Source: Escherichia phage D5505
Sequence record: MK327929.1
Direction: 5' to 3' (one strand)
Length of the DNA: 64,000 nucleotides
Below the pieces are notes generated by a model, which searched no databases, was not told where the DNA came from, and worked only from the letters and a program-made list of their open reading frames with translations. Within the stretch, counting starts at the first letter, position 1. Each line of letters opens with the position of its first letter. Below are positions 15,349 through 63,050 of the stretch, piece after piece. A program made the position numbers and the translations under genes.

Positions 15349-15639
15349 TTATTTACGGAATGAAATGAAAGCAGCAACTGAAGCAACTAAACTGTCTTCA
15401 ATATAAACTTCAATTTTTACCGGAGCTTCTGACTCAAATTTACCTGTTACTACACCCTGAAAAATACTTTCAGTCTGTTCTGGCTTTGAAAAATTTTCAG
15501 AAGGAAAAATTCCGAACTTTTTATCTGTTCCAAAAATTTTGATAAATTCATCGTAAACTGCTTCATTAAAAGCATTATCAGCAGGAATAACGCCTTCAAC
15601 TACAAGTTCTTGACCTAAAAAGCGCAAAGAAGATTTCAT
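15349..15639 (-). CDS. hypothetical protein (alt.-3 position)
   Basis: 96-aa ORF with ATG, preceded by early promoter. Confidence 0.5.
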   Translation of the reverse strand: MKSSLRFLGQELVVEGVIPADNAFNEAVYDEFIKIFGTDKKFGIFPSENFSKPEQTESIFQGVVTGKFESEAPVKIEVYIEDSLVASVAAFISFRK

Positions 15640-15670
15640 TTTGTGTTCCTCATGTTATGTCAGTAAGACT

Positions 15671-15700
15671 ACTATAACACAACACGAGGGACTTGTAAAC
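15671..15700 (-). promoter_or_regulatory. sigma70-type early promoter (GTTTACA - 17 nt - TATAGT), copy A of a 54-bp repeat
   Basis: minus strand GTTTACAagtccctcgtgttgtgtTATAGT; identical element at 31595-31624. Confidence 0.55.
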
Positions 15701-17757
15701 TACATCTTGAACTTTTTAGACATTCCGTTGATGTTAACCAAAGAAGCTAAGATTTGAGAAACTTCGTTTTCCTCTTCTTTTGATTCTTCTACAAGGAATT
15801 GATTAAATCCAGCCATTGGACGAACTTCACCAGTTTCCATCAAATGATCGCCATCATATACTGATTCTTCTAATTGCTCAGAAGGAGGAACGATTGTACC
15901 TTCGATTAGATACTTGTTATAAGCAGTTTCTTTCATAAAGTAAGTACTTACTTTATTAATCTTCAGTAAAATTCCACGCGGTAGAATAACTTCAGCTTCT
16001 GATGGAAATCCTGATAAATGACCCGGAACGATAACTTTGATTCGCTCAGCTCCTTTAATTACCATACCCACGCTAGTTTCAGCATCTTCATTAGCATATG
16101 TAGAATGACTACCCATATGCATCAAATCTTCTGCATCAACGGAACCTTCTCCTTCACCAGAAAATACTGCACCGGAATCATCTAGAGCCATATAGTTTTT
16201 ACCATGCTCGCCGAAGATATTTGGTTTAAGCGATGTAGATACGAAGTTCTTGAAATAGAACATTTTGTTTTCAATGTTATGACGCAAAGTTTTAAAGGTA
16301 ACTTCTTGTCCGCGATAAAGCGTAGTTCCTGGAGGAAGAACTGAACCTTTAGCGAATGCAGAATCCAACGTCTCGATGTGCTTAATAGCTCGTTCCATAT
16401 ATTCTTCACGGGTAGAATCTGGTTTACCCAAAAGGAACGAGTTCATTTCAACATATGAATCTGCACAATAATCTTCAATTACATCAGATTCGGCCTGAGT
16501 CAGTCCTTTTGGAGTTACTTCAGTGCTTGCGTATTCATATGCCTGGGCAGCAGATTCATTAATCAATTTATAAATGCCATTCATGACAAATTGAATAATA
16601 GCTGTCTTTTCATCTGGCGTAGCTTTAGAACCTTTAACTAAATCATTAATAATTTTCTTAATAACATCAAAGCTATTAGAAATATTAATGTCAGCAAGAT
16701 CGCTTAAAATTTTATCAGTTTTATAATCAAAGAATTCTTTATTCTTTAAATATTCTTGAGAACCTTGATATGTTATATCGCTCTGCAACTTGATAGATGG
16801 ATCACGTAAACGTGCATGGGCCAATGCAATATGATTTCGGAAGCTTTCTAGTTCATAATCGCTAGATTTAAAACGAGAAGCACTTCTCATACCACCGATA
16901 GCTCCTTTGCTGAAGTTTGAACCAATCTGGATAACGCCAGAGTTCATTGGTCCTTCTGCTTTATATACCGGAACTTTAGATTCAAACTCTTGATATTTCT
17001 TGGCAGCGAAGCTATCACCCTGTAGCGAAGCATCGACAGTAGAATATTGAGCTTGTGCTGCTAATCGACGACTAATTTTAGTTTTTTGAATAACAGCTTG
17101 ATCCGTGCGCTTATCATTTTCTAAAGCAATAGAAGCAGCAACAGCGACAGCTTTAGGAACAGCATTACCTGTTTTAACATCTACATAAACATCACCGACC
17201 TTCGATTCAACTTTTGTGAATAACTCAGTTGAAATAGGAGGTACACCTGGAATGTCTTCTAAATTGGCATTTTTACGGTAAACCATAATATATGCATACT
17301 TTTTATCATAGTCCCAGATTTCCTTTAAAAGAACATATCGACCTGCTCCTTTAGTACGTACTAAACGGTCAGCAATAACTTGCATTTGACGAGCAGCGCC
17401 ATTTGTTTTACTCTTTAGTACGCGGAATAAGCATGCATCAATTTTATACTGTTTCATTGTTTGAAGAGCAGTATCAAAAACAGCGTTAATGACGCCAATT
17501 GGATTTCCACCCAAGTTTCTAAGTTTAACCAGTGATAATTTCTCGTTGACACCTATCATTACGATATGCATCATTTTATCGCCCGGCTTAACGTTTTTAT
17601 TTGTATCACCTCCAGAGGTGTATGTACAAAATCTAAATCCAGGAAGCACGCTTTCTTCGCCGGCTTGAATAGCAAAAATTTGAGGTATTTTATGCTTAGG
17701 ATTTAAGTTAACAACCGGCGCCGAAGCGCCGTCAAATAATTCTGTAATAAGTTCCAT
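15700..17757 (-). CDS. Alt-like ADP-ribosyltransferase paralog
   Basis: 685 aa; N-terminus MELITELFD shared with Alt; R-S-E ART motifs LYRGQ, FVSTSL, EVILPRG; divergent C-terminal half. Confidence 0.8.
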   Translation of the reverse strand: MELITELFDGASAPVVNLNPKHKIPQIFAIQAGEESVLPGFRFCTYTSGGDTNKNVKPGDKMMHIVMIGVNEKLSLVKLRNLGGNPIGVINAVFDTALQTMKQYKIDACLFRVLKSKTNGAARQMQVIADRLVRTKGAGRYVLLKEIWDYDKKYAYIMVYRKNANLEDIPGVPPISTELFTKVESKVGDVYVDVKTGNAVPKAVAVAASIALENDKRTDQAVIQKTKISRRLAAQAQYSTVDASLQGDSFAAKKYQEFESKVPVYKAEGPMNSGVIQIGSNFSKGAIGGMRSASRFKSSDYELESFRNHIALAHARLRDPSIKLQSDITYQGSQEYLKNKEFFDYKTDKILSDLADINISNSFDVIKKIINDLVKGSKATPDEKTAIIQFVMNGIYKLINESAAQAYEYASTEVTPKGLTQAESDVIEDYCADSYVEMNSFLLGKPDSTREEYMERAIKHIETLDSAFAKGSVLPPGTTLYRGQEVTFKTLRHNIENKMFYFKNFVSTSLKPNIFGEHGKNYMALDDSGAVFSGEGEGSVDAEDLMHMGSHSTYANEDAETSVGMVIKGAERIKVIVPGHLSGFPSEAEVILPRGILLKINKVSTYFMKETAYNKYLIEGTIVPPSEQLEESVYDGDHLMETGEVRPMAGFNQFLVEESKEEENEVSQILASLVNINGMSKKFKM

Positions 17758-17760
17758 GAT

Positions 17761-19809
17761 TTATCCTTGAACGAACTTGTAAGGCATGTTTGCAATATCT
17801 ATGCAAGACGCAATAATTCCAAGAGATGATTCTACTTTCTGTTTAACATTTGATGAAACAAATGATGCAAAGTCAACTCTATCTTCTATATCACCTGTCA
17901 TTGTAACCAATTCACCAGTTTCCATTAAATGGTCTCCGTCATAGATTACCGATTCGGTGAGTTCTTCTGTGGTCATAACTTCAGCTTGAATAAGCTTGTT
18001 GTTAGTTTTAACTGTTCCATCATTGTAAGATGCATCGGTTATTTTATTAACTTTGACCATTAATCCACGTGGCAAAATGACTTCCATTTCATTTGAAGGT
18101 GCTAAACTTCCACCGGGTAAAACAACATTGACCTTATCAGCCCCAGTAATAACCCATCCAATTCCAACTAAATTATCGCTAGAATTTACTAGTCCTTCAT
18201 CAGTTTTATCAATAGAAACACTTAGACGCTTTTCGTCTGGTAAAACACCTACAGATGAATCAGTCATCCAAGTACCAAAAATATTTGGATATAATGATGT
18301 TGACACAAAGTTTCTAAAATAAAAAACTCGATTTTTTACCATTGCTTCATATATTGAAGGTAACATTCGTTGTGAACGATACAAAGTAATACCTTTTGGT
18401 AATCGTTCACCATTTTTAAAGGCTGAATCTAAATTATCAATAGCTTTTTCTATGTCAGATGCTGTCAAAATACTTGTACGCTCATCTGGATTATATAATC
18501 CCAAAAGAGCATTATTTATATCTACATATCCTGAACCTACGTATTCACGAATTCCGCGTTTTTGCGCCGGTGTGTATTTAGATGAATCTTTATTTTCGAC
18601 TATAGGATGTAATGACCATCCAGCTGTAAGAGCATATCCACGTAATTCTCTTCGAATAATCTTTGTTTTTATTGCATTCCAAGAATTTTGTACTAACTCA
18701 TTTGCAGCATCTTGATTTAAATGCGAATGTTTGTTAATATTTCTTTCAAACCAAGCACCTTTATATTTTTCTAAAGTATCATCGACGATAGAAGCAATAG
18801 TTTCTAAAGTTTTTATTGAAGTAATAGATTCTTTTCGTAATCTTTCTAAAGCTTTATTTTTTATTTCTGTATTAACATCAGATTCTTTATCTTCAGGAAT
18901 TATAGAAGCTTCTCTGAATGCCATTCCAGCTGTAACACTATTAAGAGCATTCTCTAATGCAAATCCTGAAGTAGAAATAACAGTTAATTCGTTAGCATCG
19001 GAAATTAAAGGCGCATCAGCGGGTTTATTTAATTCTGCTGCTGAAGCCTCAAATTTTTGAAACATCGGTGTTTCAAATCTAGAAGATTCCAATGATTGAC
19101 TTTGCGCAATTGCTCTACGGGAAATTTTAACTTTAACGATTACAGCTTGGTCAGAACGTTTATCATTTTCTTGTGCAATAGATGCTGCAATTGCCTCATT
19201 TTTAGTTACTTGAGCTCCAGTATCTTTATTGATATAAACATCACCGACCTTCGATTCAACTTTAGTAAAGAGCTCGGTACTAATTTCTGGAACTCCTGGA
19301 ATGTCTTCTAGTGATACATTTTTGCGATGTATAAGAATATATGCATACTTTTTATCATAATCCCAGAGTTCCTTAAGAAGGACGTATCTGCCACCTGAAC
19401 GACTACGGATAAGTCTATCAGCAATAACTTGAATTTGTCGAGCTTGACCAGCGGTTTTAGACTTAAGAATACGGAGCATACAAGCATCAATTTTATATTG
19501 ACGCATTGTTTGCATTGCAACAGTAAAAACTGAATTGATATAATTAATTGGGCTTGGCCCAAGACCTTTCAATTTAGCAATTGAACCTTTAGCGGTTAAT
19601 GTAAAAGGAACAATATGCATCATTTTATCGCCCATTTTTAAATCGCGATTAGTATCACCTCCAGATGTATAGGTACATAAACGAAAGCCTGGCTGTTCAA
19701 TTGCATCATCAACGTGAACTGAAAAAATTTGCGGTATTTTCTTCTTTGGATTTAAGTTTGTAATCGGAAGAGTAGTATCTTCGTCAAATAATTCTGTAAT
19801 GAGTTCCAT
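17761..19809 (-). CDS. alt: Alt ADP-ribosyltransferase (packaged, injected)
   Basis: 682 aa from second ATG; motifs LYRSQ, FVSTSL, EVILPRG; matches remembered T4 Alt. Confidence 0.85.
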   Translation of the reverse strand: MELITELFDEDTTLPITNLNPKKKIPQIFSVHVDDAIEQPGFRLCTYTSGGDTNRDLKMGDKMMHIVPFTLTAKGSIAKLKGLGPSPINYINSVFTVAMQTMRQYKIDACMLRILKSKTAGQARQIQVIADRLIRSRSGGRYVLLKELWDYDKKYAYILIHRKNVSLEDIPGVPEISTELFTKVESKVGDVYINKDTGAQVTKNEAIAASIAQENDKRSDQAVIVKVKISRRAIAQSQSLESSRFETPMFQKFEASAAELNKPADAPLISDANELTVISTSGFALENALNSVTAGMAFREASIIPEDKESDVNTEIKNKALERLRKESITSIKTLETIASIVDDTLEKYKGAWFERNINKHSHLNQDAANELVQNSWNAIKTKIIRRELRGYALTAGWSLHPIVENKDSSKYTPAQKRGIREYVGSGYVDINNALLGLYNPDERTSILTASDIEKAIDNLDSAFKNGERLPKGITLYRSQRMLPSIYEAMVKNRVFYFRNFVSTSLYPNIFGTWMTDSSVGVLPDEKRLSVSIDKTDEGLVNSSDNLVGIGWVITGADKVNVVLPGGSLAPSNEMEVILPRGLMVKVNKITDASYNDGTVKTNNKLIQAEVMTTEELTESVIYDGDHLMETGELVTMTGDIEDRVDFASFVSSNVKQKVESSLGIIASCIDIANMPYKFVQG

Positions 19810-19832
19810 CATATCCTCTCTAGTGTTTATTC

Positions 19833-23705: not shown

Positions 23706-23765
23706 TTCACAAAATTTTTACGGGTATCAAAATAAGTAGTCATAAACATAACATTTTCCTCAGTA

Positions 23766-23783
23766 AGGGGCCAAAGCCCCTCA
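23766..23783 (-). terminator. hairpin GGGGC-CAAA-GCCCC
   Basis: GC stem-loop between ORFs. Confidence 0.4.
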
Positions 23784-23789
23784 TTTATT

Positions 23790-24155
23790 TTAAATATCAA
23801 ATTCGTTAAGAACTACATCAAAGATTGCTTCAAGATGCTCAGGTTTAGCTCTGTTACTCAGAATATGACGAATCCAAGTTTTAACCAAAAGCTTGCGATT
23901 AACGCCATTCCAGCAAGGATGAGTCCCTAAATCGCGTTCACGGAAATCATCATCCAGAGCGATTTTAAAGTTGGAACCTTCCATCGTGATTGAAACCGTG
24001 ATACCGTTTTCAAATCGCATATAAACGTAATTAGGAGTCATATACTGCTCAATTTCGCATACTGATCCATTTTGATGTTTCCAAAGGCAAATAGTATCAA
24101 TAGAACCTGCAATACCATTAGAAACATATTTACGTTCAAAGTTGATGTAGTTCAT
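23790..24155 (-). CDS. hypothetical protein (30.7 position)
   Basis: 121 aa from ATG (track ORF starts at upstream TTG). Confidence 0.45.
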   Translation of the reverse strand: MNYINFERKYVSNGIAGSIDTICLWKHQNGSVCEIEQYMTPNYVYMRFENGITVSITMEGSNFKIALDDDFRERDLGTHPCWNGVNRKLLVKTWIRHILSNRAKPEHLEAIFDVVLNEFDI

Positions 24156-24180
24156 TTTATTATCCAAGATGTTTAATTGC

Positions 24181-24220
24181 GGTACAGGTATATAATATCA
24201 TATCCTGTACCAAAGTAAAC
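24181..24220 (-). promoter_or_regulatory. early promoter (GTTTACT ... TATTAT) embedded in an 8-bp inverted repeat
   Basis: GGTACAGG - 15 nt - CCTGTACC palindrome encloses the -10 region. Confidence 0.45.
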
Positions 24221-24222
24221 AA

Positions 24223-24555
24223 TTATTTTACTACTTTCCAATGCTGCATGTCAAGTTTACCAACTTTTTTCATCTTCTCAATTAAGCGTTCGGCACGTTG
24301 GCGAGCTGTAACATAATACCATTCACCTAATTCATTTTGTTCAATTTTTCCAACGATTACTGTATTCAATTCATAAATCCAACCAGTAAAGAAATTATGA
24401 ACTTGAATTGTAAAGGTGAAATCTGTTCCCATACCTTCTGTTGTTTCTACTTCAATAATATCACCTTCAACTGCCATTAAGAACCACATAGTTTCATCAT
24501 ATTTACCATTGAAGCATTTAGTTTTAACTGCAGCGTTCAGATTAATCGTTTTCAT
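24223..24555 (-). CDS. hypothetical protein (30.8 position)
   Basis: 110-aa ORF with ATG. Confidence 0.5.
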   Translation of the reverse strand: MKTINLNAAVKTKCFNGKYDETMWFLMAVEGDIIEVETTEGMGTDFTFTIQVHNFFTGWIYELNTVIVGKIEQNELGEWYYVTARQRAERLIEKMKKVGKLDMQHWKVVK

Positions 24556-24582
24556 TTTATTCTCCTTTGTTTGTGTAAGATA

Positions 24583-24612
24583 ATACTATCACAAAGGAAC
24601 CATACTGTAAAC
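24583..24612 (-). promoter_or_regulatory. early promoter GTTTACA - 17 nt - TAGTAT
   Basis: T4 early promoter consensus on the minus strand, preceded by hairpin 24642-24659. Confidence 0.5.
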
Positions 24613-24665
24613 AACTTTATGCAATCTTTGGAAAATAAAAAAGGACTCCCGAAGGAGTCCTCAAC

Positions 24666-27490: not shown

Positions 27491-27723
27491 AGTACGCCAT
27501 ACACCCTTTGTGCTTCAACTAATCCATCAAAATCCAATTTGAGATGTGTTATTTGGTCACCATCACCTGGATTCACAATTACTAATACCGAACGAGGAGT
27601 TTCGGTAATAACACGAACCGACGTTTCAGGAAATCGTTCAGAAACCTTATTTACCAATTCTTGAGCAAATAGTTTAACTTTTTCTTGGAATTCTTTAACA
27701 GTAATTGGTTTTTCGCTTAGCAT
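27487..27723 (-). CDS. hypothetical protein
   Basis: 78-aa ORF. Confidence 0.45.
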   Translation of the reverse strand: MLSEKPITVKEFQEKVKLFAQELVNKVSERFPETSVRVITETPRSVLVIVNPGDGDQITHLKLDFDGLVEAQRVYGVL

Positions 27724-28244
27724 GTTGATCCTAGCTCCTTACTTTCAACATTTTTAACTAATTTGACAGAAACTAATTCAGCATCTTGGGTAATCATTAC
27801 CGGACCTTCTTCATGCTCTTCAAGATATTCTAGAGCTTTCTTTTTAGCTTCTTCCTTCGTATCAGTTTGAGCATAGATATAGAACATACAACCAGTAATA
27901 CCTACTACTTTCCACTTAATTTCTTTATCAGTTTTAATTTCAAATTTACTTACAGAATCATCTTTTTGAACTTCTTCGAAAAAAGAATATTCTAACATAT
28001 AAGCAATTGAAAATAACGGGCTAACTTTATAGGATTCACCCATTACATCAACAGCTTTATACCAACAATCATCAATTTCACGTTTAATGCTAATAACATT
28101 TTTCGCAGGATCTATTTTTACTTTAAATGAATTTTCCCCAATAAACTGGGCAATTCGTTTATTAGCCCCGCAAGTTTCATTAAAAATATCTTTATACCCA
28201 GTTTTAAAGCGATAAACCTTATCTTCTTCAAACCATTCGCTCAT
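27717..28244 (-). CDS. hypothetical protein
   Basis: 175-aa ORF, early promoter GTTTACT...TATTAT upstream (28262-28291). Confidence 0.5.
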   Translation of the reverse strand: MSEWFEEDKVYRFKTGYKDIFNETCGANKRIAQFIGENSFKVKIDPAKNVISIKREIDDCWYKAVDVMGESYKVSPLFSIAYMLEYSFFEEVQKDDSVSKFEIKTDKEIKWKVVGITGCMFYIYAQTDTKEEAKKKALEYLEEHEEGPVMITQDAELVSVKLVKNVESKELGSTC

Positions 28245-28305
28245 TTCAATTTCCTCGTTTGTTTTGGTAGAGCTATAATATCACAACTCTACCGTAAAGT
28301 AAACT

Positions 28306-30719: not shown

Positions 30720-31069
30720 TTAGAAAGGTCCTGGATGTCTTCTGCGAACTTGTTGAAGGAGTTGTTGATTTGTTTTTCAACCAATCCTGGCTTACGAGCC
30801 ACCACATCCGCCTTCTTTGCATCTTTGCGGAGTTTTTCATTTTCACGCTCAATAGCAGCAATCGCCTCACGATTTTTATTATTCATCGCATCAATATAAT
30901 TATACTGAATTCGCAAATTATTTAATGCTAAGGCGTTTTCATTGGCCGTTTTTGTAATTTCTACAACAGACGTTTCTAATCTTTCAATTTTATTTTTTAA
31001 AATTAAAGAAGTTCCGCCTAATGCAATTACAATTAATAGCAAACCTGCTGTCGTATTACTTAATTGCAT
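30716..31069 (-). CDS. i-spanin (inner-membrane, T4 PseT.3-like)
   Basis: 117 aa; N-terminal TM helix then coiled-coil; overlaps the o-spanin gene. Confidence 0.65.
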   Translation of the reverse strand: MQLSNTTAGLLLIVIALGGTSLILKNKIERLETSVVEITKTANENALALNNLRIQYNYIDAMNNKNREAIAAIERENEKLRKDAKKADVVARKPGLVEKQINNSFNKFAEDIQDLSK

Positions 31070-31566
31070 AAAGTTTTAATAACCTCTATAATATCGTCTT
31101 GAGAAAGACCGTTAATTAAAATATGATGTTCAGCCGGAGATTTAGAAATTTTAAAGCATGCCTCAACATCTTCTGCCATATCCGATGCGCTACGATTTGG
31201 ATTACTAATTCCAAGACGATGTTTTCCCGTTAAAGGATTAACGATGATATAGCATTTACAGTTGTTAATATGAACATTAGGTTGAGTCTGATTAATGAAC
31301 ACATCGCAATCATATTTCGCAAGCTGATTTTCTAAAAAGACTTTCATCTCCTCAACCGCATCAGGAAGCATATCACGGGCTTGCTCAAGACGACGATTTC
31401 GATATTCTTTAATGGTCGTTTTCCGCTTGACTTGCTTAGCTAAATCTTTCTTAAGATCGGTGATATATCCAACTCGACGATTTCCTTTAAATACAGAAAT
31501 CCCATCTGTAGTATCACCGTATGCTTCAACGACCATTTCAGTAGTAATAAGCTGCAAATCCATCAT
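31060..31566 (-). CDS. alc: Alc, inhibitor of host transcription
   Basis: 168 aa, position between spanins and rnlA as in T4. Confidence 0.65.
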   Translation of the reverse strand: MMDLQLITTEMVVEAYGDTTDGISVFKGNRRVGYITDLKKDLAKQVKRKTTIKEYRNRRLEQARDMLPDAVEEMKVFLENQLAKYDCDVFINQTQPNVHINNCKCYIIVNPLTGKHRLGISNPNRSASDMAEDVEACFKISKSPAEHHILINGLSQDDIIEVIKTLCN

Positions 31567-31594
31567 AAAGTCCTCATGTTATGTCAGTAAGACT

Positions 31595-31624
31595 ACTATA
31601 ACACAACACGAGGGACTTGTAAAC
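31595..31624 (-). promoter_or_regulatory. early promoter, copy B of the 54-bp repeat
   Basis: identical to 15671-15700: GTTTACA - 17 nt - TATAGT. Confidence 0.55.
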
Positions 31625-31627
31625 AGC

Positions 31628-33215
<1,588 letters not shown>

Positions 33216-40211: not shown

Positions 40212-40544
40212 TTAAAAAGGATCAGGAACATATCCGCTAGCTTTAATCATTTTAATTAACGTTAACATTCCTTTGTTAACTGCTCGTGAGATTTCATCAA
40301 AAACTTCATCACTAAAAAGTTCTAACACGCCCTTCTGAACTTTTAATTTACAGCCAACAATTTCGTCATCTCCTATAGTAAATTCGCTTCCGCCAATTCC
40401 GCCGAAAAACTTAATTACGCCAGTTAACTGTCTTCCACGAGAATATGGGTCGTGTGATAAAGTAATATGAGTCACCCCAGGTACAGTTTTAAATTGGCAG
40501 CGGATGTTTACTTGAGCAATTCCAGTTACATGAATGTCAGACAT
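40212..40544 (-). CDS. hypothetical protein
   Basis: 110-aa ORF. Confidence 0.45.
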   Translation of the reverse strand: MSDIHVTGIAQVNIRCQFKTVPGVTHITLSHDPYSRGRQLTGVIKFFGGIGGSEFTIGDDEIVGCKLKVQKGVLELFSDEVFDEISRAVNKGMLTLIKMIKASGYVPDPF

Positions 40545-40554
40545 ATTATTTTCC

Positions 40555-40797
40555 TCAAACAGACTTTTTCACAATTTTCCAATCAGCTTTAAACTGATCA
40601 ACATCAGAATGATAAATCCAGAATCCTGCGCTTTCTCCGTCTTCATAAAGAGGACATCCATCGCATTCATCTTCCCACCCCATATCGCGTAAAAGATGTT
40701 CAGCTTTTTCAACAAGCCCAGAATCTTTACCGATGATATTAAAATACCATTTACCTTTAACTTCTGAATCTTTGATGCTCTGGCGTTGTAATCTCAT
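40555..40797 (-). CDS. hypothetical protein
   Basis: 80-aa ORF. Confidence 0.45.
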   Translation of the reverse strand: MRLQRQSIKDSEVKGKWYFNIIGKDSGLVEKAEHLLRDMGWEDECDGCPLYEDGESAGFWIYHSDVDQFKADWKIVKKSV

Positions 40798-40807
40798 TTT
40801 ATTCTCC

Positions 40808-40876
40808 TTAGCAAGCTTTAATCAAAAGATATAAACAGACCAACATAACTGCTGCCATAATATAAGGTGCGAACAT
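40808..40876 (-). CDS. possible 22-aa hydrophobic peptide
   Basis: ATG with GGAG SD 9 nt upstream, directly downstream of an early promoter; MFAPYIMAAVMLVCLYLLIKAC. Confidence 0.25.
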   Translation of the reverse strand: MFAPYIMAAVMLVCLYLLIKAC

Positions 40877-40935
40877 TTTCTTTTCTCCATTAGTTTTGAT
40901 AGGGTAATAGTATCACACTACTACCCTTCTGTAAA

Positions 40936-41301
40936 CTACTTTTTGAAAGTTTTTCGCAAAAGTTCAATGATTTCATCTACATTGTTTTCGTCAACAATGC
41001 AGTGAATTTTTGTTACGCCAGAAACTTTGTCTTTGACTTCATCTTCTTCAGAAGTCGGTTCTTTATACTCACGAAAACAATGAAATTCGTCTTCACAAAC
41101 GTTAAAGTAAAAATGCTTTCCATTTGCGCATTCAATGTGTTTTATTACTCTAAATCCATCAACAAAGAAAGCTTCTTTAACTTCAAACCATCCGCCATTT
41201 TCTTGAATAATTTTAACTATCGATGAATTAGAACGTGGGCGATAATTAATAAATGTATCAATAAGTCTTGGAACAAGCTCATACTTTTTGCCAATATACA
41301 T
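40936..41301 (-). CDS. hypothetical protein
   Basis: 121-aa ORF with ATG. Confidence 0.45.
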   Translation of the reverse strand: MYIGKKYELVPRLIDTFINYRPRSNSSIVKIIQENGGWFEVKEAFFVDGFRVIKHIECANGKHFYFNVCEDEFHCFREYKEPTSEEDEVKDKVSGVTKIHCIVDENNVDEIIELLRKTFKK

Positions 41302-41346
41302 TACGTTTTCCTCATTTTAACGGGGCTTGTAATAGCCCCTTGATAA

Positions 41347-41577
41347 TTATTGTTCAATCAATCCCATGTAAAATTCTGCGTCTTCAGAATCCATACCATC
41401 ACAATATTCATTAGCCATAAAGCGGGTGAGGTCTTCAAGAGGACCTTCAATGACAATAGAAAAATTGCAATAATTGGGATCATCGTGAATACTTGTGATA
41501 CTAAGTTCAGGATAACGATTACGAATAATTTCTTCAATATATTCAAAATCAACGATGTCAATATCAACTTTAGCCAT
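41347..41577 (-). CDS. hypothetical acidic protein
   Basis: 76 aa from ATG with AGAGGA SD; track ORF extends upstream through the promoter. Confidence 0.45.
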
Positions 41578-41622
41578 ATTATTTTCCTCTTTAATTATCA
41601 GCAGTATTGCCGATAGTTGTAT

Positions 41623-41652
41623 AGTACCATGGAAGGACAAGGATGTAAACAG
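41623..41652 (-). promoter_or_regulatory. early promoter GTTTACA - 17 nt - TACTAT with conserved A/T upstream element
   Basis: near-identical cassettes at 58483-58512 and 62138-62167. Confidence 0.5.
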
Positions 41653-41682
41653 TTTTGTGAAAAAATTTTTGAAATAAAAAGG

Positions 41683-41701
41683 GGACCTCTAGGGTCCCCA
41701 A
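41683..41701 (-). terminator. hairpin GGGGACC-TCTAG-GGTCCCC downstream of gene 32
   Basis: 7-bp GC stem. Confidence 0.5.
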
Positions 41702-41721
41702 TTAATTAGTAATATAATCTG

Positions 41722-42630
41722 TTAAAGGTCATTCAAAAGGTCATCTAGATCCGTGTCATCAGCACTAGATGAACTGCCAGAGCTTGAGCTCATAAAATCA
41801 TCTTCAGTTTTTGTTTTGAAGTCATCAACATTGAATGCATCCAAATCATCAGCAACTTTATCAGCTTTCTTAGCGGCAGTTGCAGCGGCACCACCCATTG
41901 CAGCAGTTCCCATAACTTGACTGAACTTAGTGCTCAGTTCTTCAAATGATTTGAATTTATCTTTAGAAGTCATTTCAGAAAGGTCAACCATTTGTTCGAA
42001 CAGTTCTTTCTGGAAAGATTCATCGTCAATGTTTGGAATCGCAGATTGATTCAGGAATTTAGATTCGTCGTAGTTACTAAAACCAGAAACTTGTTTAACT
42101 TTCAGTACAAAGTTAGCACCTTCCCACGGACAAGTTACATCAACCGGAGTTTCACCCATTTCAACATCAACTGCAATCATTGCATTGATTTTATCCCAGA
42201 TTTTCTTACCGAAACGATATTTAAATACTTTACCTTCGTTTTCTGGAGCAGCTGGGTCTTTTACAACAAGAATGTTAGCCCAGTAAGAAGTTTTACGTTT
42301 AACAAGACTGTACTCTTTATTGTCAGTGTTGTACAGATCATTTTTACTGATGTACTGACATACTGGGCAAGAATCGTAATCACCGTGGGTAGATGAGCAA
42401 TTTTCGATATACCATTTACCGTTTTTCTTGAAACCGTGATTTACAAGAATTGCGAATGGTGCTTGTTCATCATTTTTAGACGGAAGAAAACGAATTACTG
42501 CTTGACCGTTACCCGCATTATCGAGTTTCAGTTTCCACTCGCCTTTATCTTCAGAAGAAAAACCACCTTTATTTCCAGCCAGTTTAGCCATTTGTGCAGC
42601 GAGTTCAGCAGTAGATTTACGTTTAAACAT
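41722..42630 (-). CDS. 32: gp32 single-stranded DNA-binding protein
   Basis: 302 aa; Zn-binding Cys/His cluster, acidic Ser/Asp-rich C-terminus. Confidence 0.9.
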
Positions 42631-44995: not shown

Positions 44996-47900
44996 ATGGC
45001 CGAGATTAAAAGAAAGTTCAGAGCAGAAGATGGTCTGGACGCAGGTGGCGATAAAATAATCAACGTAGCTTTAGCTGACCGTACCGTAGGAACTGACGGT
45101 GTTAACGTTGATTACTTAATTCAAGAAAACACAGTTCAGCAATATGATCCAACTCGTGGATATTTAAAAGATTTTGTAATCATTTATAATAATCGTTTTT
45201 GGGCAGCAACGGATAATATTCCAAAACCTGCTGGAAATTTTAATAGAATTCGTTGGAAAGCATTACGTACTGATGCCGTATATACAACCGTATCATCTGG
45301 ACCATATCAATTAAAATCCGGAGAAGCAATTTCAGTAGATACATCAGTTGGCAATGACATTGAGTTTACTTTACCACCTTCTCCGCTTGATGGAGAAACC
45401 GTAATAATTCAAGATATCGGTGGAAAACCTGGCATAAATCAGGTTAAAATAAATTCTTCAAATCAGAGTATTGTCAATTTTAGAGGTGAACAGGTACGTT
45501 CAGTTTTAATGACTCATCCAAAGTCACAGATGATATTCATTTTTAATAATCGTTTGTGGCAAATGTATGTTGCTGATTATAGCAGAGAAGCTGCGATTGT
45601 TACTCCATCGACTGCGTATCAAGCACAATCTAATGATTTTATCGTACGTAGATTTACTTCTGCTGCACCAATTAATGTTAAACTTCCGAGATTTGCTAAT
45701 CATGGCGATATTATTAATTTCGTTGATTTAGATAAACTGAATCCACTTTATCATACAATTGTTACTACATACGATGAAACGACTTCAGTACAAGAAGTTG
45801 GAACTCATTCCATTGAAGGCCGTACATCGATTGACGGTTTCTTGATGTTTGACGATAATGAGAAATTGTGGAGATTGTTTGACGGGGATAGTAAAGCACG
45901 TTTACGCATTATAACAACTAATTCAAATATTCGTCCAAATGAAGAAGTCATGGTATTTGGCGCGAATAATGGAACAACCCAAACAATTGAACTTCAGCTT
46001 CCGACTGATATTTCTGTTGGTGATACTGTTAAAATTTCCATGAATTACATGAGAAAAGGACAAACAGTTAAAATCAAAGCTGCTGGTGAAGATAAAATTG
46101 CTTCTTCAGTTCAATTGCTGCAATTCCCAAAACGTTCAGAATATCCGCCTGAAGCTGAATGGGTAACAGTTCAAGAATTAGTTTTTAACGGTGAAACTAT
46201 TTATGTTCCAGTTTTACAACTTGCTTATATAGAAGATTCTGATGGAAAATACTGGGTTGTACAGCAAAACGTTCCAACTGTAGAAAGAGTAGACTCTTTA
46301 AATGCTTCTACTAGAGCAAGATTAGGCGTAATTGCTTTAGCTACGCAAGCTCAAGCAAATGCTGATTTAGAAAATTCTCCACAAAAAGAATTGGCAATTA
46401 CTCCAGAAACGTTAGCTAATCGTACTGCTACAGAAACTCGCAGAGGTATCGCAAGAATAGCAACTACTGCTCAAGTAAACTGCTACAGAAACTCGCAGAG
46501 GTATCGCAAGAATAGCAACTACTGCTCAAGTAAATCAGAACACTACATTCTCTTTTGCTGATGACCTTATCATCACTCCTAAAAAGCTGAATGAAAGAAC
46601 TGCTACAGAAACTCGCAGAGGTGTTGCTGAAATTGCTACGCAGCAGGAAACTAATACAGGTATCGATGATACTACAATCATCACTCCTAAAAAGCTTCAA
46701 GCTCGTCAAGGTTCTGAAACATTATCGGGTATTGTAACTTTTGTATCTACCGCAGGAGCTACTCCAGCCTCTAGTCGTGAATTAAATGGTACAAATGTTT
46801 ATAATAAAAACACTAATAATTTAGTTGTTTCACCTAAAGCTTTGGATCAGTATAAAGCTACTCCAACGCAACAAGGCGCAGTAATTTTAGCAGTTGAAAG
46901 TGAAGTAATTGCTGGACAAAGCCAAGAAGGATGGGCAAATGCGGTTGTAACGCCAGAAACGTTACATAAAAAGACATCAACTGATGCAAGAATTGGTTTA
47001 ATTGAAATTGCTACACAAAGTGAAGTTAATACAGGAACTGATTATACTCGTGCAGTCACTCCTAAAACTTTAAATGACCGTAGAGCAACTGAAAGTTTAA
47101 GTGGTATAGCTGAAATTGCTACACAGGTTGAATTCGACGCAGGCGTCGACGATACTCGTATCTCTACACCATTAAAAATTAAAACCAGATTTAATAATAC
47201 TGATCGTACTTCTGTTGTTGCTCTATCTGGATTAGTTGAATCAGGAACTCTCTGGGACCATTATACCCTTAATATTCTTGAAGCAAATGAGACACAGCGT
47301 GGTACACTTCGTGTAGCTACACAAGTTGAAGCTGCTGCAGGAACATTAGATAATGTTTTAATAACTCCTAAAAAGCTTTTAGGTACTAAATCTACCGAAT
47401 CGCAAGAAGGTGTTATTAAAGTTGCAACTCAGTCTGAAACTGTGACTGGAACGTCAGCAAATACTGCTGTATCTCCAAAAAATTTAAAATGGATTGTGCA
47501 GAGTGAACCAACTTGGGCAGCAACTACTCTGATAAGAGGGTTTGTTAAAACTTCTTCTGGTTCATTAACGTTTGTTGGTAATGATACGGTAGGTTCAACA
47601 CAGCCATTAGAATCATATGAGAAAAATGGTTATGCAGTATCACCATATGAATTAAATCGCGTATTAGCAAATTATTTGCCATTAAAAGCAAAAGCTGTAG
47701 ATAGTAATTTATTAGATGGTCTAGATTCGCTCCAGTTCATTCGTAGGGACATTGCACAAACAGTTAATGGTTCACTAACCTTAACCCAACAAACGAATCT
47801 GGGTGCCCCTCTTGTATCATCTAGTACTGCTACATTCGGTGGATCAGTTTCAGCAAATAGTACATTAACTATTTCTAATACTGGAACGGCAACTCGTCTG

Positions 47901-56976: not shown

Positions 56977-57124
56977 TTGGTTTCCTCAACACTTTTAATT
57001 TTTATAGCTTGTTTAGAACTTTCAAAGCATTGACAATATACTCTTACCGCATCAAACTGGTTGGCCGCTTTAAGATGGACTACACCTTCGTCGTTATAAA
57101 ATTCTACGACAATTTTAAATGTTT

Positions 57125-57454
57125 TCATTTAAACCATCCTTTAATACGTTGCCATAAAGTTTTCTGTTGAGCTTTGTTAACACCAATTGAACGAATAACT
57201 GGTTGAGATTCCTGAAATTCTTTATAATCAGCAAGGTAAATTTCGTAAGCTGCATCCGTAAATGAACTTATCGCTGCCATAAAATTATTGCGAATACCTA
57301 CTGAAGCATCTTTACTTTCACGAATAATCATGTATTTACCAGTCTTAATCTTTACGATAGTTCCAAGATAAGCTCCATGGTACCAGATGTCCCAACCCTC
57401 TTGAGTAGGTTCTACACAACGACGAAGTTCATTGACAATTTCTAACTTGTTCAT
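57125..57454 (-). CDS. hypothetical protein (motA.1 position)
   Basis: 109-aa ORF. Confidence 0.45.
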   Translation of the reverse strand: MNKLEIVNELRRCVEPTQEGWDIWYHGAYLGTIVKIKTGKYMIIRESKDASVGIRNNFMAAISSFTDAAYEIYLADYKEFQESQPVIRSIGVNKAQQKTLWQRIKGWFK

Positions 57455-57464
57455 TATTTATTCC

Positions 57465-58100
57465 TCACAGTTCAGATGCTACAGTGATTACAGCTTCAAT
57501 GTTTTCTGCCGAGCGTTTAATGTCAAGATACACATTACCGTTTTTAGCGATTTTACATGACATTCCGATGTCAGTAAATTTCTGAATATGATGTTCCATC
57601 ATTTTGTATCCAAAAATTCGCATATTTCCATTGTTGTTAATTTCAAAATTACGAATTCCGTGAGTGCGTTTTTCTAAAATAGCGAGATAGTTACTGCGGT
57701 AAGTTTCAACCTTTTTAAGAACAAATCCATTTTCATCTAAAAGTTTTAACATGAAGTCTTTATCTTCTTCCATATCAGAGGTAATTTCGCGAGCTTTACG
57801 AGTTGCTCGTTTTTTCAGTAGTTCCGGAGCGTTTTCCTGCGCGTATAAAGTTGCTGCATTTGAAATAATATCCTGAGCTTCACCAGTAATGATTAATCCA
57901 TCACCAGATTTCTCCACCAGGCCTTTTTTAATCAATACCCCAATATTACTATTAACTACTGCGTTACCTAAATCTGGATGCACCTCACGAACTTCTGCGG
58001 CTGTAATGAAATCTTTCTTAGCAATGGTAATTAAAATCGCAGCAGTTTTTTCATTCAGAACATCGTTAGAAGCTTTGATGATGTAAGTTACTTTAGACAT
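57465..58100 (-). CDS. motA: MotA middle-transcription activator
   Basis: 211 aa, length and position as T4 MotA. Confidence 0.85.
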   Translation of the reverse strand: MSKVTYIIKASNDVLNEKTAAILITIAKKDFITAAEVREVHPDLGNAVVNSNIGVLIKKGLVEKSGDGLIITGEAQDIISNAATLYAQENAPELLKKRATRKAREITSDMEEDKDFMLKLLDENGFVLKKVETYRSNYLAILEKRTHGIRNFEINNNGNMRIFGYKMMEHHIQKFTDIGMSCKIAKNGNVYLDIKRSAENIEAVITVASEL

Positions 58101-58205
58101 TTTAATCTCCGTTTCAGTTCATTTATTTGATAGGTCTATAGTATCATGTTTAAAGCAGAAGTAAACACTTTTTTGCACTCTTTTTCAAGAGCTCTAATAA
58201 AGTAC

Positions 58206-58433
58206 TTACTTAATGTTCAGATTACGAACTTCGATTTCGTCTTCATGGGCAAAATCAAACTGTTTGAATTCTGTGTCACCTTTAAATTTAAAAATCATTG
58301 TGAAGAAAGTCAGAACACCAGGTTTTTCTTCACGAACTCCACAGATATCATATTCAATACCATCTACAACCAGTTTGTTAGCAGTCAGAGCATTTTTAGC
58401 TTTAACGATTTCGTTTTCGATTTTAAATTTCAT
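58206..58433 (-). CDS. hypothetical protein
   Basis: 75-aa ORF downstream of early promoter 58483-58512. Confidence 0.45.
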   Translation of the reverse strand: MKFKIENEIVKAKNALTANKLVVDGIEYDICGVREEKPGVLTFFTMIFKFKGDTEFKQFDFAHEDEIEVRNLNIK

Positions 58434-58482
58434 TTTTTGTATCTCCGGGTTGTTTGTTTCAGTTCATTTATTTGATAGTTGT

Positions 58483-58512
58483 ATAGTACCACAGTATGCT
58501 TTGGTTGTAAAC
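58483..58512 (-). promoter_or_regulatory. early promoter GTTTACA - 17 nt - TACTAT
   Basis: consensus cassette preceded by terminator hairpin 58544-58563. Confidence 0.5.
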
Positions 58513-58543
58513 CGTTTTGTGAAAAAATTTTTGAAATAAAAAA

Positions 58544-58563
58544 GGGAGAGCCTCGGCTCTCCC
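58544..58563 (-). terminator. hairpin GGGAGAGC-CTCG-GCTCTCCC
   Basis: 8-bp GC stem. Confidence 0.5.
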
Positions 58564-58568
58564 TAAAA

Positions 58569-58718
58569 TTACTGCATGACTGTGATAACTGTCATGATAA
58601 CACGTTGAATTCCGAACGCAAGAAGACCTCCTGTTACGGCAGGAACAACACCTAAACCCGCCAGTAAAATGCCACCAGATACTAATGCAGCGCTTGTGAT
58701 ACCAATGAATGGACTCAT
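58569..58718 (-). CDS. 49-aa hydrophobic membrane peptide, translationally coupled to gene 52
   Basis: ATGA overlap with gene 52 stop; SD AGAGGAAA; MSPFIGITSAALVSGGILLAGLGVVPAVTGGLLAFGIQRVIMTVITVMQ. Confidence 0.45.
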   Translation of the reverse strand: MSPFIGITSAALVSGGILLAGLGVVPAVTGGLLAFGIQRVIMTVITVMQ

Positions 58719-60043
58719 TTGATTTCCTCTAAATCTTTGGTGTATTCTGTAACTACATCAGTAGTTTTCCAATATTCGTTTTCTTCTTTTTTGGCTTTAG
58801 CTTCTTCAGCAAGTTTCTTTGCTTCGTCGGAAGTCATATGAAAAATGTTCATTCCAACTAGTTTATCAACATAAGAAGAATACATATCAATTTTAGAAAG
58901 TTCTTCGGTCAGTTCTTTGCGAGTTTTACCTTGTACAACAATTTCACCTGAAATTACTTTCTTAATGAAATGTGCCTTGGCAAAAGCTAAACGAAATGCT
59001 GATTCAGTTTCTTTGATTTTGTTATCAATTCGTTTTTGGACATAAGTTTTACGAACTTCAACGAAGTCTTTGATTAAATCAACTACATTATCGTAAACTT
59101 GCAGCTTTCCTTTCTCATTAATGACGGTAATATTCTGGGAACGACGCTCAATCAACCCGAAGTCTTTCATAATTTTTGCATGGCGTTCTTCTTCATTATC
59201 GCTCAAAGAGTATTCTTTTCGGAATTTAACTTTGAATCCAAAACCATGCTCACCACAAGCATCATCCCATGTAATGAAGCCTTTATCTTCAAGCGGGTCT
59301 AAGATTTTACTCACATAAGTTTCACGATCATACTTATATGGAATCTCAGTGATATGCATTTGAGTTCGTGAAGTAAACTTATATGTTCCACGAATTTCAT
59401 ATTGCCCATCAATTTCAACGACTTCACCACGAAATTCTGGGAATTCTACCTTCGGTTTAGTTACTTTCTTTCCTTGAAGAGCTTGCAGTACAGCTTTCTT
59501 GACAGAAGAAACACTATGAGGAAGAATGTAAGTTGCATAACCAGTTGCAATACCGGAAACGCCATTAAGAAGAACAGTAGGAATAATAGGCAAATAGAAA
59601 GCAGGCGGAATGTGTTCTTTATCTTGATGTACTGGAGCATATTCAGTATCTTTATATACGTTATAGAAATTTTTACTTACACGAGCAAAAATATAACGAC
59701 TTGCTGCTGCCTTTTGGACAGTACGAGAACCAAAGTTTCCTTGACCGTCTAACAGAGGAAAGTTATTATTCCAAGTGTTAGCCATCAAAGCACCTGCGTC
59801 TTGCGCAGAGTTTTCACCATGATGATATCCAAGGTCCGCTACACCGCCTGCGATAGAAGCGAGTTTGTGAAACTTATCTTTATTTCCTCGTGCCAAATCA
59901 AGAGCTCGAGCAATAACAAATCGTTGAACTGGCTTAAATCCGTCAATCATATTTGGAATGGCACGATTTTCAACCGTGTACATAGCATAAGCCAATGCTT
60001 CATTATCAATGATACTTTTTAAATCACGATTATTCAGTTGCAT
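58715..60043 (-). CDS. 52: gp52 DNA topoisomerase II medium subunit
   Basis: 442 aa; GyrA-like N-terminal region. Confidence 0.9.
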   Translation of the reverse strand: MQLNNRDLKSIIDNEALAYAMYTVENRAIPNMIDGFKPVQRFVIARALDLARGNKDKFHKLASIAGGVADLGYHHGENSAQDAGALMANTWNNNFPLLDGQGNFGSRTVQKAAASRYIFARVSKNFYNVYKDTEYAPVHQDKEHIPPAFYLPIIPTVLLNGVSGIATGYATYILPHSVSSVKKAVLQALQGKKVTKPKVEFPEFRGEVVEIDGQYEIRGTYKFTSRTQMHITEIPYKYDRETYVSKILDPLEDKGFITWDDACGEHGFGFKVKFRKEYSLSDNEEERHAKIMKDFGLIERRSQNITVINEKGKLQVYDNVVDLIKDFVEVRKTYVQKRIDNKIKETESAFRLAFAKAHFIKKVISGEIVVQGKTRKELTEELSKIDMYSSYVDKLVGMNIFHMTSDEAKKLAEEAKAKKEENEYWKTTDVVTEYTKDLEEIK

Positions 60044-60047
60044 AAAT

Positions 60048-60188
60048 TTACCATACTAGTGAATGTAGTGCCATAATAACATCAGAAATGAAAAGCACGA
60101 CTTGAATTAATCCGAACATTATTCCGTAATATAATGCTATCAATAAAATAGCAAGGGCTAATGAATAGCCCAAGATTTTCTTAATCAT
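60048..60188 (-). CDS. 46-aa hydrophobic peptide (52.1 position)
   Basis: ATG immediately after gene 52 region; MIKKILGYSLALAILLIALYYGIMFGLIQVVLFISDVIMALHSLVW. Confidence 0.35.
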   Translation of the reverse strand: MIKKILGYSLALAILLIALYYGIMFGLIQVVLFISDVIMALHSLVW

Positions 60189-60339
60189 TAGTAGATAACA
60201 ACACAAATGTTAAATATGCACACATACCCTGAGCTAAAGCTTGCGAAAACACACTGCTGGCATCAATACAGATAGTTAAAACACATGCTACTATCCAACA
60301 AATAAATGAAATAACTCCTAATAATTTTGCGATATTCAT
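60181..60339 (-). CDS. ac: Ac (acridine sensitivity) membrane peptide
   Basis: 52-aa hydrophobic ORF between 52 and stp as in T4. Confidence 0.45.
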   Translation of the reverse strand: MNIAKLLGVISFICWIVACVLTICIDASSVFSQALAQGMCAYLTFVLLSTND

Positions 60340-60346
60340 ATTTTCC

Positions 60347-60427
60347 TCACTGGCGTCCGAAGACGCCTTTAGTTTTAAGATTATTACGATAGAACTGCAT
60401 CACGTGTTCGTTGTGGAAATTACTCAT
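60347..60427 (-). CDS. stp: Stp peptide (suppressor of three-prime phosphatase; 26 aa)
   Basis: [26 protein letters not shown] matches remembered T4 Stp; TAATG overlap with ndd stop. Confidence 0.75.
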
Positions 60428-60885
60428 TAATATGCCTGCAAAACGAATTTAAAATTATCAGCCAACATACGGTTCATTTCTTCAAGTGTTTGATACTCAG
60501 AATGATGATTACGAGTAAACGCTAAAGCTAACTGTCCTTTTCCAAATCCCGTCGTCAGAGGTTTCATCTTAGAAGCAGGCAGATAAAATACTGCGTATGG
60601 AACATTGTTATTTGCAATAGTACGTGCAAGCTGAGACCGACGTTGACGAATATGACTTAGAACTGCACTGAATCCTTGCTTAGAACGCTGATTACCTACA
60701 TAAAATCGTGCAGACACGCATGGATTACTAAATGGACGACCATCTAATTTACTCACTAAAAAGTAAAATCCAGGTTTAGATAAAAAGTCTTTATGCGGAG
60801 TTCCCAAAAACCATTCACCGTTCTTGATTGTACCAATAACGGTAGCGCCCGCATTATTCAGATCAGTAGCAGTCATGTATTTCAT
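60427..60885 (-). CDS. ndd: Ndd nucleoid disruption protein
   Basis: 152 aa from MKYMTATDL; position beside stp. Confidence 0.75.
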
Positions 60886-60945
60886 ATTAATTTCCTCTAA
60901 ATTATTTTCTACTCCAAGGCCGCATGAATACACGCGGCCATTAAA

Positions 60946-61474: not shown

Positions 61475-61481
61475 ATTTTCC

Positions 61482-61595
61482 TCACATAAATCCAAAGTAA
61501 GCGTTTAATACATCAATCATTAAAACGATTGGGAATATACTCAAAACTACTAGTATTATAACTACATTCCATATAGCTTTAACAATCTTTTTCAT
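61482..61595 (-). CDS. 37-aa membrane peptide
   Basis: ATG downstream of early promoter 61624-61653; hydrophobic. Confidence 0.3.
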   Translation of the reverse strand: MKKIVKAIWNVVIILVVLSIFPIVLMIDVLNAYFGFM

Positions 61596-61839
61596 TTTCT
61601 GTTCCTCCGTAGTTGATAGGGTAATAGTACCACGGAAGAACAGTCTTGTAAACAACTTTTTTTAAAAATATTCGTAATAAATGTGAATACCAACTACTAC
61701 CGCTGAAACCTGTGCAACCCACCACGCACAAGCAATAAGTACAGAATTCAAAATTTTCATAATAACCTCATTACAAAAGTAAATGTTAAACAAATTAATG
61801 GAATACTAATTAACCAAACAAAACACCACCATAATGAAC

Positions 61840-63022: not shown

Positions 63023-63050
63023 AATTTTCCTCAGTTAAGGGCCGAAGCCC

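Follow-up and report, generated by a model that had tools for sequence, protein, structure and literature searches.

A duplicated early promoter cassette of T4-like phages with a conserved hairpin predicted to mask the Shine-Dalgarno sequence

Early genes of T4-like phages are driven by promoters that share an UP element, a GTTTACA -35 box, a 17-nucleotide (nt) spacer, a TGn extension and a TAnnnT -10 box (Hinton 2010, PMC2988021). In phages RB49 and phi1, elements known as PeSLs (promoter-early stem-loops) carry a stem-loop between -35 and -10 or over the -10 box, which has been read as an attenuator (PMC2839356), and PeSLs have been proposed as recombination substrates (Arbiol 2010, PMC2839356; Comeau 2014, PMC4122927). 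In T4 itself, genes e, soc, 49 and I-TevI have a promoter inside a hairpin that sequesters the ribosome-binding site (PMC3014915). Here we describe a 54-bp element that occurs twice in a 64,000-nt stretch of Escherichia phage D5505 (sequence record MK327929.1; hereafter the window), once upstream of alc and once upstream of alt.-3. We read it as an early promoter built into a hairpin of the PeSL kind that would mask the Shine-Dalgarno (SD) sequence and gate translation by transcription start site, and we put the probability of this reading as a whole at roughly 0.6.

A first-pass annotation of the window had reported an exact 54-bp repeat at two distant loci, with a -35 box, a 17-nt spacer, a TATAGT -10 box and a leader with a GAGG SD sequence, placed right after the preceding stop codon and before a 96-amino-acid (aa) open reading frame (ORF) and alc, respectively. 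A repeat search and direct reading of the 64-kb window bore this out. The two direct copies are identical, function on the minus strand (read on that strand, GTTTACAAGTCCCTCGTGTTGTGTTATAGTAGTCTTACTGACATAACATGAGGA), are spaced 15,924 bp apart and diverge from each other immediately on each side (table 1). ORF coordinates and the T4 annotation identified the 96-aa ORF as alt.-3 and upheld the placement before alc. The first base of copy 1 is the final G of the TAG stop codon of a 685-aa Alt paralog, so that the two overlap by 1 nt, copy 2 starts 3 nt past the TAA of rnlA, and in both the closing GAGGA is followed by the downstream ATG after 4-7 nt. Mutants of alt.-3 escape the CmdTAC defence system (PMC11618068).

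The repeat itself is ordinary, being present in T4 and in essentially every sequenced Tequatrovirus. The window belongs to this T4-like genus, and BLAST of both loci against GenBank phages returned about 500 Tequatrovirus records with 93-100% identity. The 54-mer alone was found at 997 places in 499 phage records, or about two per record; the T4 copies lie at 123040-123093 (one mismatch, G40A) and 136283-136336 (exact). With about two copies in each of 499 records, T4 included, the pair is a conserved feature of the genus and not a peculiarity of the window. Presence in 499 records also rules out an assembly artefact or chance as its source, and for the homologous T4 stretch a chance origin was excluded by shuffling, as none of 200 shuffles matched even with three mismatches. 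Roles as a MotA box, a RegB GGAG site or a tRNA were discarded, no such motif being present in the 54-mer as read.

A motif scan of the window for GTTTAC...TAnnnT returned, on the minus strand, 13 promoters typical of T4 early genes, both copies among them. Each copy combines GTTTACA, 17 nt ending in TGT and TATAGT, as expected of a T4-type early (sigma-70) promoter; the TGT supplies an extended -10 TGn, with TG at -15/-14. Annotation of RefSeq record NC_054924.1 marks nt 1-30 of copy 1 as a promoter, and in the T4 time-course omics (Wolfram-Schauerte et al. 2022, PMC9697503, supplementary files 4 and 6) the class assigned to alt.-3 and alc is early for RNA as well as protein, that of rnlA early for RNA and late for protein, and that of alt.-1 and alt.-2 middle for RNA. 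The consensus match, the RefSeq annotation and the early class of both genes in T4 lend good support to the first-pass description of the element as an early promoter plus 5' untranslated region, and we hold with high confidence that the pair is a duplicated early promoter/leader cassette. Judged by the usual distance from the -10 box, transcription would start at about nt 36-38. The upstream A/T tracts of both copies sit inside the upstream ORFs, outside the repeat, and differ between the loci: copy 2 has TTTTTGAAAAATTATAAAAAATTT some 20-45 nt upstream, while copy 1 has only CTAAAAAGTTCAA, about 10 nt away from where the window's other early promoters usually have theirs. The pair matches standard T4 early promoters in the -35, spacer, TGn and -10 features and in driving early genes, but differs from them in that the two copies share the whole spacer and leader, whereas the window's other early promoters share the consensus motifs only (61-85% identity).

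An AUG in the conserved leader (nt 48-50 of the element) overlaps the SD sequence and opens a short frame of five sense codons in copy 1 and four in copy 2 (15637-15653 and 31562-31577, minus strand). It has no SD sequence of its own and closes in both contexts at a UGA that overlaps an AUG of the main ORF (AUGA).

The point that the first-pass annotation had not noticed, and that this analysis adds together with the probable copying from alc to alt.-3, is a predicted anti-SD hairpin. In RNA reading through either copy, nt 12-25 are predicted to pair with nt 40-53 in one long stem, which encloses a 4-bp inner stem of nt 28-31 with nt 36-39. The 5' arm consists of the promoter spacer and the first -10 base, and the 3' arm of the leader including GAGG. 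The predicted minimum-energy fold and the centroid fold of either read-through RNA alike pair the SD sequence GAGG (nt 50-53) with CCUC of the spacer (nt 12-15). Within the -10 hexamer (nt 25-30), nt 25 tops the 5' arm, nt 26-27 are unpaired and nt 28-30 belong to the inner stem, whose 3' strand also takes in the putative start site. Copy 2 has the same arms as copy 1, lengthened by three pairs with its own flank. RNA from nt 26 (the second -10 base) onward has no 5' arm and is predicted to be unstructured (-2.5 and -5.7 kcal/mol, z about 0). The repeat runs from -35 to SD and its ends fall near the foot of the stem, which would account for the joint conservation of spacer and leader.

Neither hairpin has a U-run after it, GGAACACAAAAUG coming next in copy 1 and GGACUUUAUGAUG in copy 2; in the intrinsic-terminator test the bases after the hairpin were AACACAAAAUG and CUUUAUGAUG, respectively, and an intrinsic (rho-independent) terminator was rejected for want of a U-run. 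A covariance model (R1) matched copy 1 at 15637-15700 and copy 2 at 31560-31624, and no Rfam family reached its gathering score anywhere in the window. Among 40 Tequatrovirus copies, all cassette variants keep a fold of -15.8 kcal/mol or lower. In this genus the sense strand is favoured over the antisense strand (-24.4 versus -15.4 kcal/mol) because two to three G.U pairs become A.C mismatches on the other strand. We consider it highly probable that the hairpin is a selected feature.

The complementarity extends beyond the genus. Homologues of Alc are at least 97% identical within Tequatrovirus and at most 60% identical outside it. In Gelderland-, Jiaoda-, Karam-, Braga-, Dhaka- and Winklervirus, the alc promoter has GTTTACA followed by a spacer that is reverse-complementary to the SD region of the leader, and the spacer/SD stems of these six genera score z = -2.4 to -5.7. 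The arm pairs themselves differ among genera, for example UCUCCGUUUAGUU/AACUAAACGGAGA, UCCUCAUCAG/CUGAUGAGGA and AACCUCUCAUUUUU/AAAAAUGAGAGGUU. Alignment of Alc gave 40 loci in IMG/VR and from these 29 further distinct cassettes outside Tequatrovirus, 22 of which have a stem ending in the SD sequence. In an alignment-free test of 34 sequences, the most stable duplex was the cognate spacer-leader one in 25 (mean -17.4 kcal/mol for cognate versus -9.0 for non-cognate duplexes). In a gap-free alignment of 11 sequences, 93.6% of cells pair, as against 37-47% after sliding the 3' partner by one to three columns; four pairs show changes on both sides, and the covariation score was reached by none of 500 shuffles. 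A MAFFT alignment of all alc cassettes, in which the 3' arms are out of register, was left out of the pair counts, as was the covariance-model alignment, which includes reverse-strand hits of the palindrome. These comparisons indicate that the ancestral rnlA-alc junction of Straboviridae already had the hairpin build.

Set beside the described systems, the cassette resembles PeSLs in having a strong sigma-70-like early promoter after an upstream stop codon, a stable predicted stem-loop over the -10 box and an end at the SD sequence and start codon of the next gene. Like PeSLs, which have been proposed as substrates of homologous recombination, it is also repeated within the genome, and neighbouring cassettes of the window flank indels. 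The difference lies in the hairpin and its setting: for PST and T4, the stem-loops were placed upstream of the promoter, as terminators, with translation not mentioned (PMC2839356), whereas here the 3' arm is the SD sequence, no U-run follows, and the pair lies 15.9 kb apart around the essential genes 30 and 31 with no indel at its borders. The recombination-substrate idea was already published, and what is added here is the conserved, predicted anti-SD hairpin and the probable copying from alc to alt.-3. With e, soc, 49 and I-TevI, the cassette has in common an SD sequence held in a helix on long transcripts and a promoter in or on the 5' strand, so that promoter-proximal RNA is without the 5' arm (here by prediction). 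Those genes use late promoters and are translated late, whereas the promoter of the 54-bp cassette is early and its predicted logic is reversed, on early and silent on later read-through. The review PMC3014915 gives no early-promoter case of such promoter-in-hairpin control, older T4 literature lying outside this search.

The mechanism that we propose is that the -35/-10 spacer would act as an anti-SD sequence and 5' arm, with leader and SD sequence as the 3' arm. RNA started at the cassette's own promoter would be without the 5' arm and would keep the SD sequence free, so that alc or alt.-3 could be translated immediately after infection. Read-through RNA, of which the Alt paralog is the likely source at copy 1 and rnlA at copy 2, would carry both arms, fold and hide the SD sequence. 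The downstream gene would then be translated only while its own early promoter fires. Such a gate would cover immediate-early genes, alc for one and in Tequatrovirus also gene 30.8, alt.-3 and the gene downstream of promoter 61653, and would leave them silent on read-through RNA of the middle or late period. As the two arms must match, the cassette would form an indivisible unit from -35 to SD that moves between loci as a block, and copying of the whole unit would have put alt.-3 under the same signals as alc. That the role of the hairpin is to silence translation of read-through RNA we rate at slightly under an even chance. We are more tentative still about the general proposal that anti-SD hairpins in early promoters are a conserved start-site-dependent gate in T4-like phages and that block movement explains the exact repeat.

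Stems straddling the -10 box were found at 8 of the 13 early promoters of the window (z <= -2.1), the one at 41650 being weak. At four promoters the stem includes the SD sequence, namely the two copies (15700 and 31624), 61653 and 24612, and covariance model R1, built from the gap-free alignment, recovered both copies together with 61653 and 24612. Promoters 40907-40936, 28275-28304 and 24192-24220 (minus strand) have stems of -16 to -19 kcal/mol (z = -3.2 to -5.0) with a free SD sequence. The first-pass annotation had further described a family of near-identical early promoter cassettes with a TACTAT -10 box and a conserved upstream A/T tract, preceded by a GC hairpin. The TACTAT promoters are present at 41621-41650 (2 nt from the position first given), 58483-58512, 61624-61653 and 62138-62167, but they are not near-identical, showing 61-85% identity over 74 nt and unrelated spacers. 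Terminator scans of 40500-42000 and 57000-63500 placed a GC hairpin with a T-run ahead of only two of these promoters (at 41699-41681 and 58564-58543) and none ahead of 61653 or 62167. Promoter 62138-62167 (minus strand) represents a second early-promoter type, in which the spacer itself holds a mini-hairpin, CAC(n)AAGGA(n)GTG; this type is also seen at the alt.-3 promoters of Karam-, Mosig-, Gapriver- and Marfavirus and at Mosigvirus alc promoters.

Homologues of alt.-3 occur in other genera, and in Karam-, Mosig-, Gapriver- and Marfavirus their promoters lie directly after the alt stop codon. These carry a small hairpin within the spacer (CAC-AAGGA-GTG), leave the SD sequence unpaired and score z of about 0. 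As they are of a different type, the anti-SD hairpin appears native to alc and the Tequatrovirus alt.-3 copy derived, and the alc cassette was probably copied to alt.-3 in the ancestor of Tequatrovirus. In other genera the leaders of alc and alt.-3 already end ...CATGAGGA, and both promoters start with GTTTACA(A). Generic motifs therefore mark just the two ends of the repeat, where they could have anchored a short tract of conversion, and the copying probably took place by ectopic gene conversion anchored on GTTTACA and CATGAGGA.

The two copies were compared in 16 genomes or contigs that carry both and that had been picked for being divergent. Within a genome the copies differ by 0-5 nt (window 0, T4 1, PP01 0, UFV10 0, T2 5, T6 5). 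The distance between the two copies (2.5-2.9) is about that between orthologous copies of different phages (2.2-3.2), and accordingly no difference between the loci is fixed. Seven variants are common to both loci, among them A16, C27, A29, A32, A33 and T34, and PP01 and UFV10 have A29+A32 in both copies. The data give hints of occasional conversion between the copies, a weak signal with few variable sites in a divergence-biased sample; with so few variable sites, recurrent mutation could also explain the shared variants. The alc and alt.-3 cassettes of a Mosigvirus (LF82-4) are 79% identical, as against 72% in Karamvirus. This may reflect an older exchange in Mosigvirus, perhaps in the opposite direction, 79% being close to the consensus background.

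The first-pass annotation also suggested that the cassettes act as recombination substrates for modular shuffling, and expected synteny breakpoints in relatives to coincide with them. This held for neighbouring cassettes, which border indels, but not for the 54-bp pair. An indel survey of the window against T4, and of the alt-alc segment against nine relatives, found indel junctions of the kind described for PeSLs at the 30.8, motA and cd.2 cassettes and none at the pair. Phage T2 is without gene 30.8 and the promoter of 30.7, and the junction falls in an 11-nt sequence, AATAAAATGAA, common to the leaders of promoters 24612 and 24220, which points to a cassette-to-cassette deletion (window 24140-24660, minus strand). 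At motA (58095-58560, minus strand), an extra 75-aa ORF (58206..58433, minus strand, phrog_10955) lies between duplicated promoter cassettes with -35 at 58512 and 58166 and a 36-nt leader repeat of 92% identity; T4 has a single promoter directly before motA. At cd.2, a 175-aa ORF (27717-28244, minus strand, phrog_3710) starts right after the SD sequence of promoter 28304 and precedes cd.2; it is present in the window, T6, PP01 and SA20RB and absent from T4, T2, P8, UFV10, KIT03 and PV654517.

A further difference from T4 that involves a cassette, of 225 bp, lies directly after promoter 62167 and is bounded by AAATGAAA. It affects an 87-aa ORF (61840-62103, minus strand, phrog_2390), of which an in-frame deletion between two AAATGAAA repeats has left T4 only the last eight codons; this remnant identifies the difference as a deletion in T4. 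The remnant is an unannotated mini-ORF at T4 166993-167019 whose stop codon overlaps the ndd.6 start. Five other indel events in the alt-alc segment are not near any cassette.

At the 54-bp pair itself, the flanks of relatives showed no breakpoint inside the cassettes: the neighbourhood of copy 2 is collinear in 494 of 499 relatives, and the T4 join lies outside copy 1. This join, of the T4 Alt-paralog deletion, is the only polymorphism adjoining copy 1 and occurs at an 8-bp CTAAA[A/G]AG microhomology, 11-19 nt upstream of the cassette. Across about 500 genomes, the two copies showed no rearrangement at or between them. A crossover between them would delete genes 30 and 31, and its product would not survive. 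The reciprocal 15.9-kb duplication would exceed the T4 headful margin and would likewise not be viable. We infer that a single ancient event, in which the complete cassette was copied from alc to alt.-3, gave rise to the pair. The Alt region of the window (15700-19812, minus strand) holds two full-length tandem ADP-ribosyltransferase paralogs of 685 and 683 aa, the latter being alt; T4 (123065-123450) has lost about 1.7 kb of the first, leaving alt.-1 and alt.-2, and the full paralog is kept in about 400 of 500 relatives.

Several observations weigh against a translational gate at a promoter moved as a block. The gating itself is predicted from geometry and folding energy. The SD sequence is not sequestered at alc in a Mosigvirus-type phage, in Providencia phage PSTCR6 and at some other alc promoters, and the -10-straddling stems of promoters 40936, 28304 and 24220 are without it, so that such stems must serve something besides SD masking. 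Across genera, antisense RNA folds about as well as sense (-18.5 versus -19.4 kcal/mol, P = 0.39), which leaves room for a role at the DNA level or on the antisense strand. Within Tequatrovirus, 18 single substitutions in 40 copies showed no bias toward keeping the fold (P = 0.5), and in the divergence-biased sample of 16 the within-genome distance between copies differed only weakly from that between genomes (2.5 versus 2.9, permutation P = 0.05).

Some of these observations fit other explanations. The stem-loop could be a transcription attenuator or a 3'-end stabiliser for RNA of the upstream gene, with SD coverage incidental to a short leader. Terminator activity has been measured for one RB49 PeSL stem-loop (Arbiol 2010, PMC2839356), and the straddling stems of the window occur mainly at promoters that abut the upstream ORF with no separate terminator, while promoters with a preceding terminator (58512, 41650) are mostly without them; the stems at 40936, 28304 and 24220, which leave the SD sequence out, would be accounted for as well. 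We nevertheless consider an attenuator or stabiliser unlikely, given that neither copy has a U-run after the hairpin and that the 3' arm at alc ends exactly at the SD sequence in most genera, which an attenuator would not need. Less probable again is that the inverted repeat acts in DNA, as a cruciform or single-strand hairpin for recombination, replication restart or promoter opening, with recombination keeping the copies alike. The equal folding of both strands across genera would agree with this, as would the several polymorphisms common to both loci, including A29+A32 in PP01 and UFV10, and for recombination in T4 a homology of about 50 bp is enough (Singer 1982, as cited in PMC2839356). 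However, about 500 genomes show no rearrangement at or between the copies, the G.U pairs of Tequatrovirus turn into A.C mismatches on the other strand at the cost in energy given above, and the shared polymorphisms may be recurrent transitions at few free sites; variation of the arm sequences among genera also makes a sequence-specific protein site unlikely. To a similarly small degree, the pair could be a plain duplicated promoter that serves transcription and ribosome binding and nothing else, its hairpin a by-product of composition and its identity the result of shared descent with little time to diverge. The missing bias toward pair-keeping substitutions within the genus and the similar two-copy and orthologous distances (2.5-2.9 and 2.2-3.2) are what such a duplication would predict. 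It does not explain why shuffles never reach the observed stability, why at least six other genera retain the complementarity although their arms differ in sequence, or why cognate arms outdo non-cognate ones. An early promoter built into an SD-masking hairpin is the reading that we prefer.

Table 1. Positions of the 54-bp cassettes, their predicted hairpins, related promoters and flanking genes in the window.
Feature	Coordinates	Strand	Details
54-bp unit, parts	nt 1-54 of the unit		TTTACA nt 2-7; spacer nt 8-24 (17 nt); TATAGT nt 25-30; GAGGA nt 50-54
54-bp cassette, copy 1	15647..15700	-	-35 GTTTAC 15700-15695; -10 TATAGT 15676-15671; SD GAGGA 15651-15647
54-bp cassette, copy 2	31571..31624	-	-35 31624-31619; -10 31600-31595; SD 31575-31571
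Predicted hairpin, copy 1	15648..15689	-	-26.2 kcal/mol, z = -4.7; 0/200 dinucleotide shuffles as stable
Predicted hairpin, copy 2	31572..31613	-	-27.3 kcal/mol, z = -4.2; 0/200 dinucleotide shuffles as stable
Early promoter of the same build	61587..61653	-	spacer CTGTTCTTCCGT predicted to pair with leader ACGGAGGAACAG including SD; -22.7 kcal/mol, z = -4.8
Early promoter of gene 30.8	24553..24612	-	weaker predicted spacer/SD hairpin; -12.5 kcal/mol, z = -2.2
alt.-3	15349..15639	-	96 aa, Pfam DUF5498; served by copy 1; name from T4 annotation
alc	31060..31566	-	168 aa, inhibitor of host transcription; served by copy 2; T4 annotation
Alt paralog	15700..17757	-	685 aa, ADP-ribosyltransferase domain; directly upstream of copy 1
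rnlA (RNA ligase 1)	31628..32788	-	386 aa; upstream neighbour of copy 2

Elsewhere in the window, a 55-nt unit forms two perfect tandem copies at 46424-46533 (plus strand), with a third of 67% identity at 46599-46653, 120 nt further on; by T4 collinearity these repeats fall in tail-fibre gene 34, and a related 29-nt repeat family is found at 46560, 46668 and 47349. The segment 34477-39172 is collinear with T4 140420-145113, which holds the td group I intron with I-TevI, yet the Rfam scan of the window at gathering threshold was empty. The T4 nrdB intron, mobE/nrdB.1 and segG are absent from the window. A GC-rich palindromic terminator-like hairpin of the AAGGGCCGAAGCCCTT type lies at 23753-23791, 62809-62834 and 63024-63062 (77-92% identity) and at 62809-62824 scores as a terminator on both strands.

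For phage engineering, the 54-bp unit offers a compact portable early-expression cassette whose two arms are best kept together. If the spacer does double as an anti-SD sequence, this would explain the block-wise conservation of spacer and leader in some T4 early promoters. Alc, which shuts off host transcription, would then be confined to the first minutes of infection despite continuing rnlA transcripts that run into alc, and alt.-3 would be under the same control. The classic T4 promoter-in-hairpin switch would thereby be extended from late to early genes.

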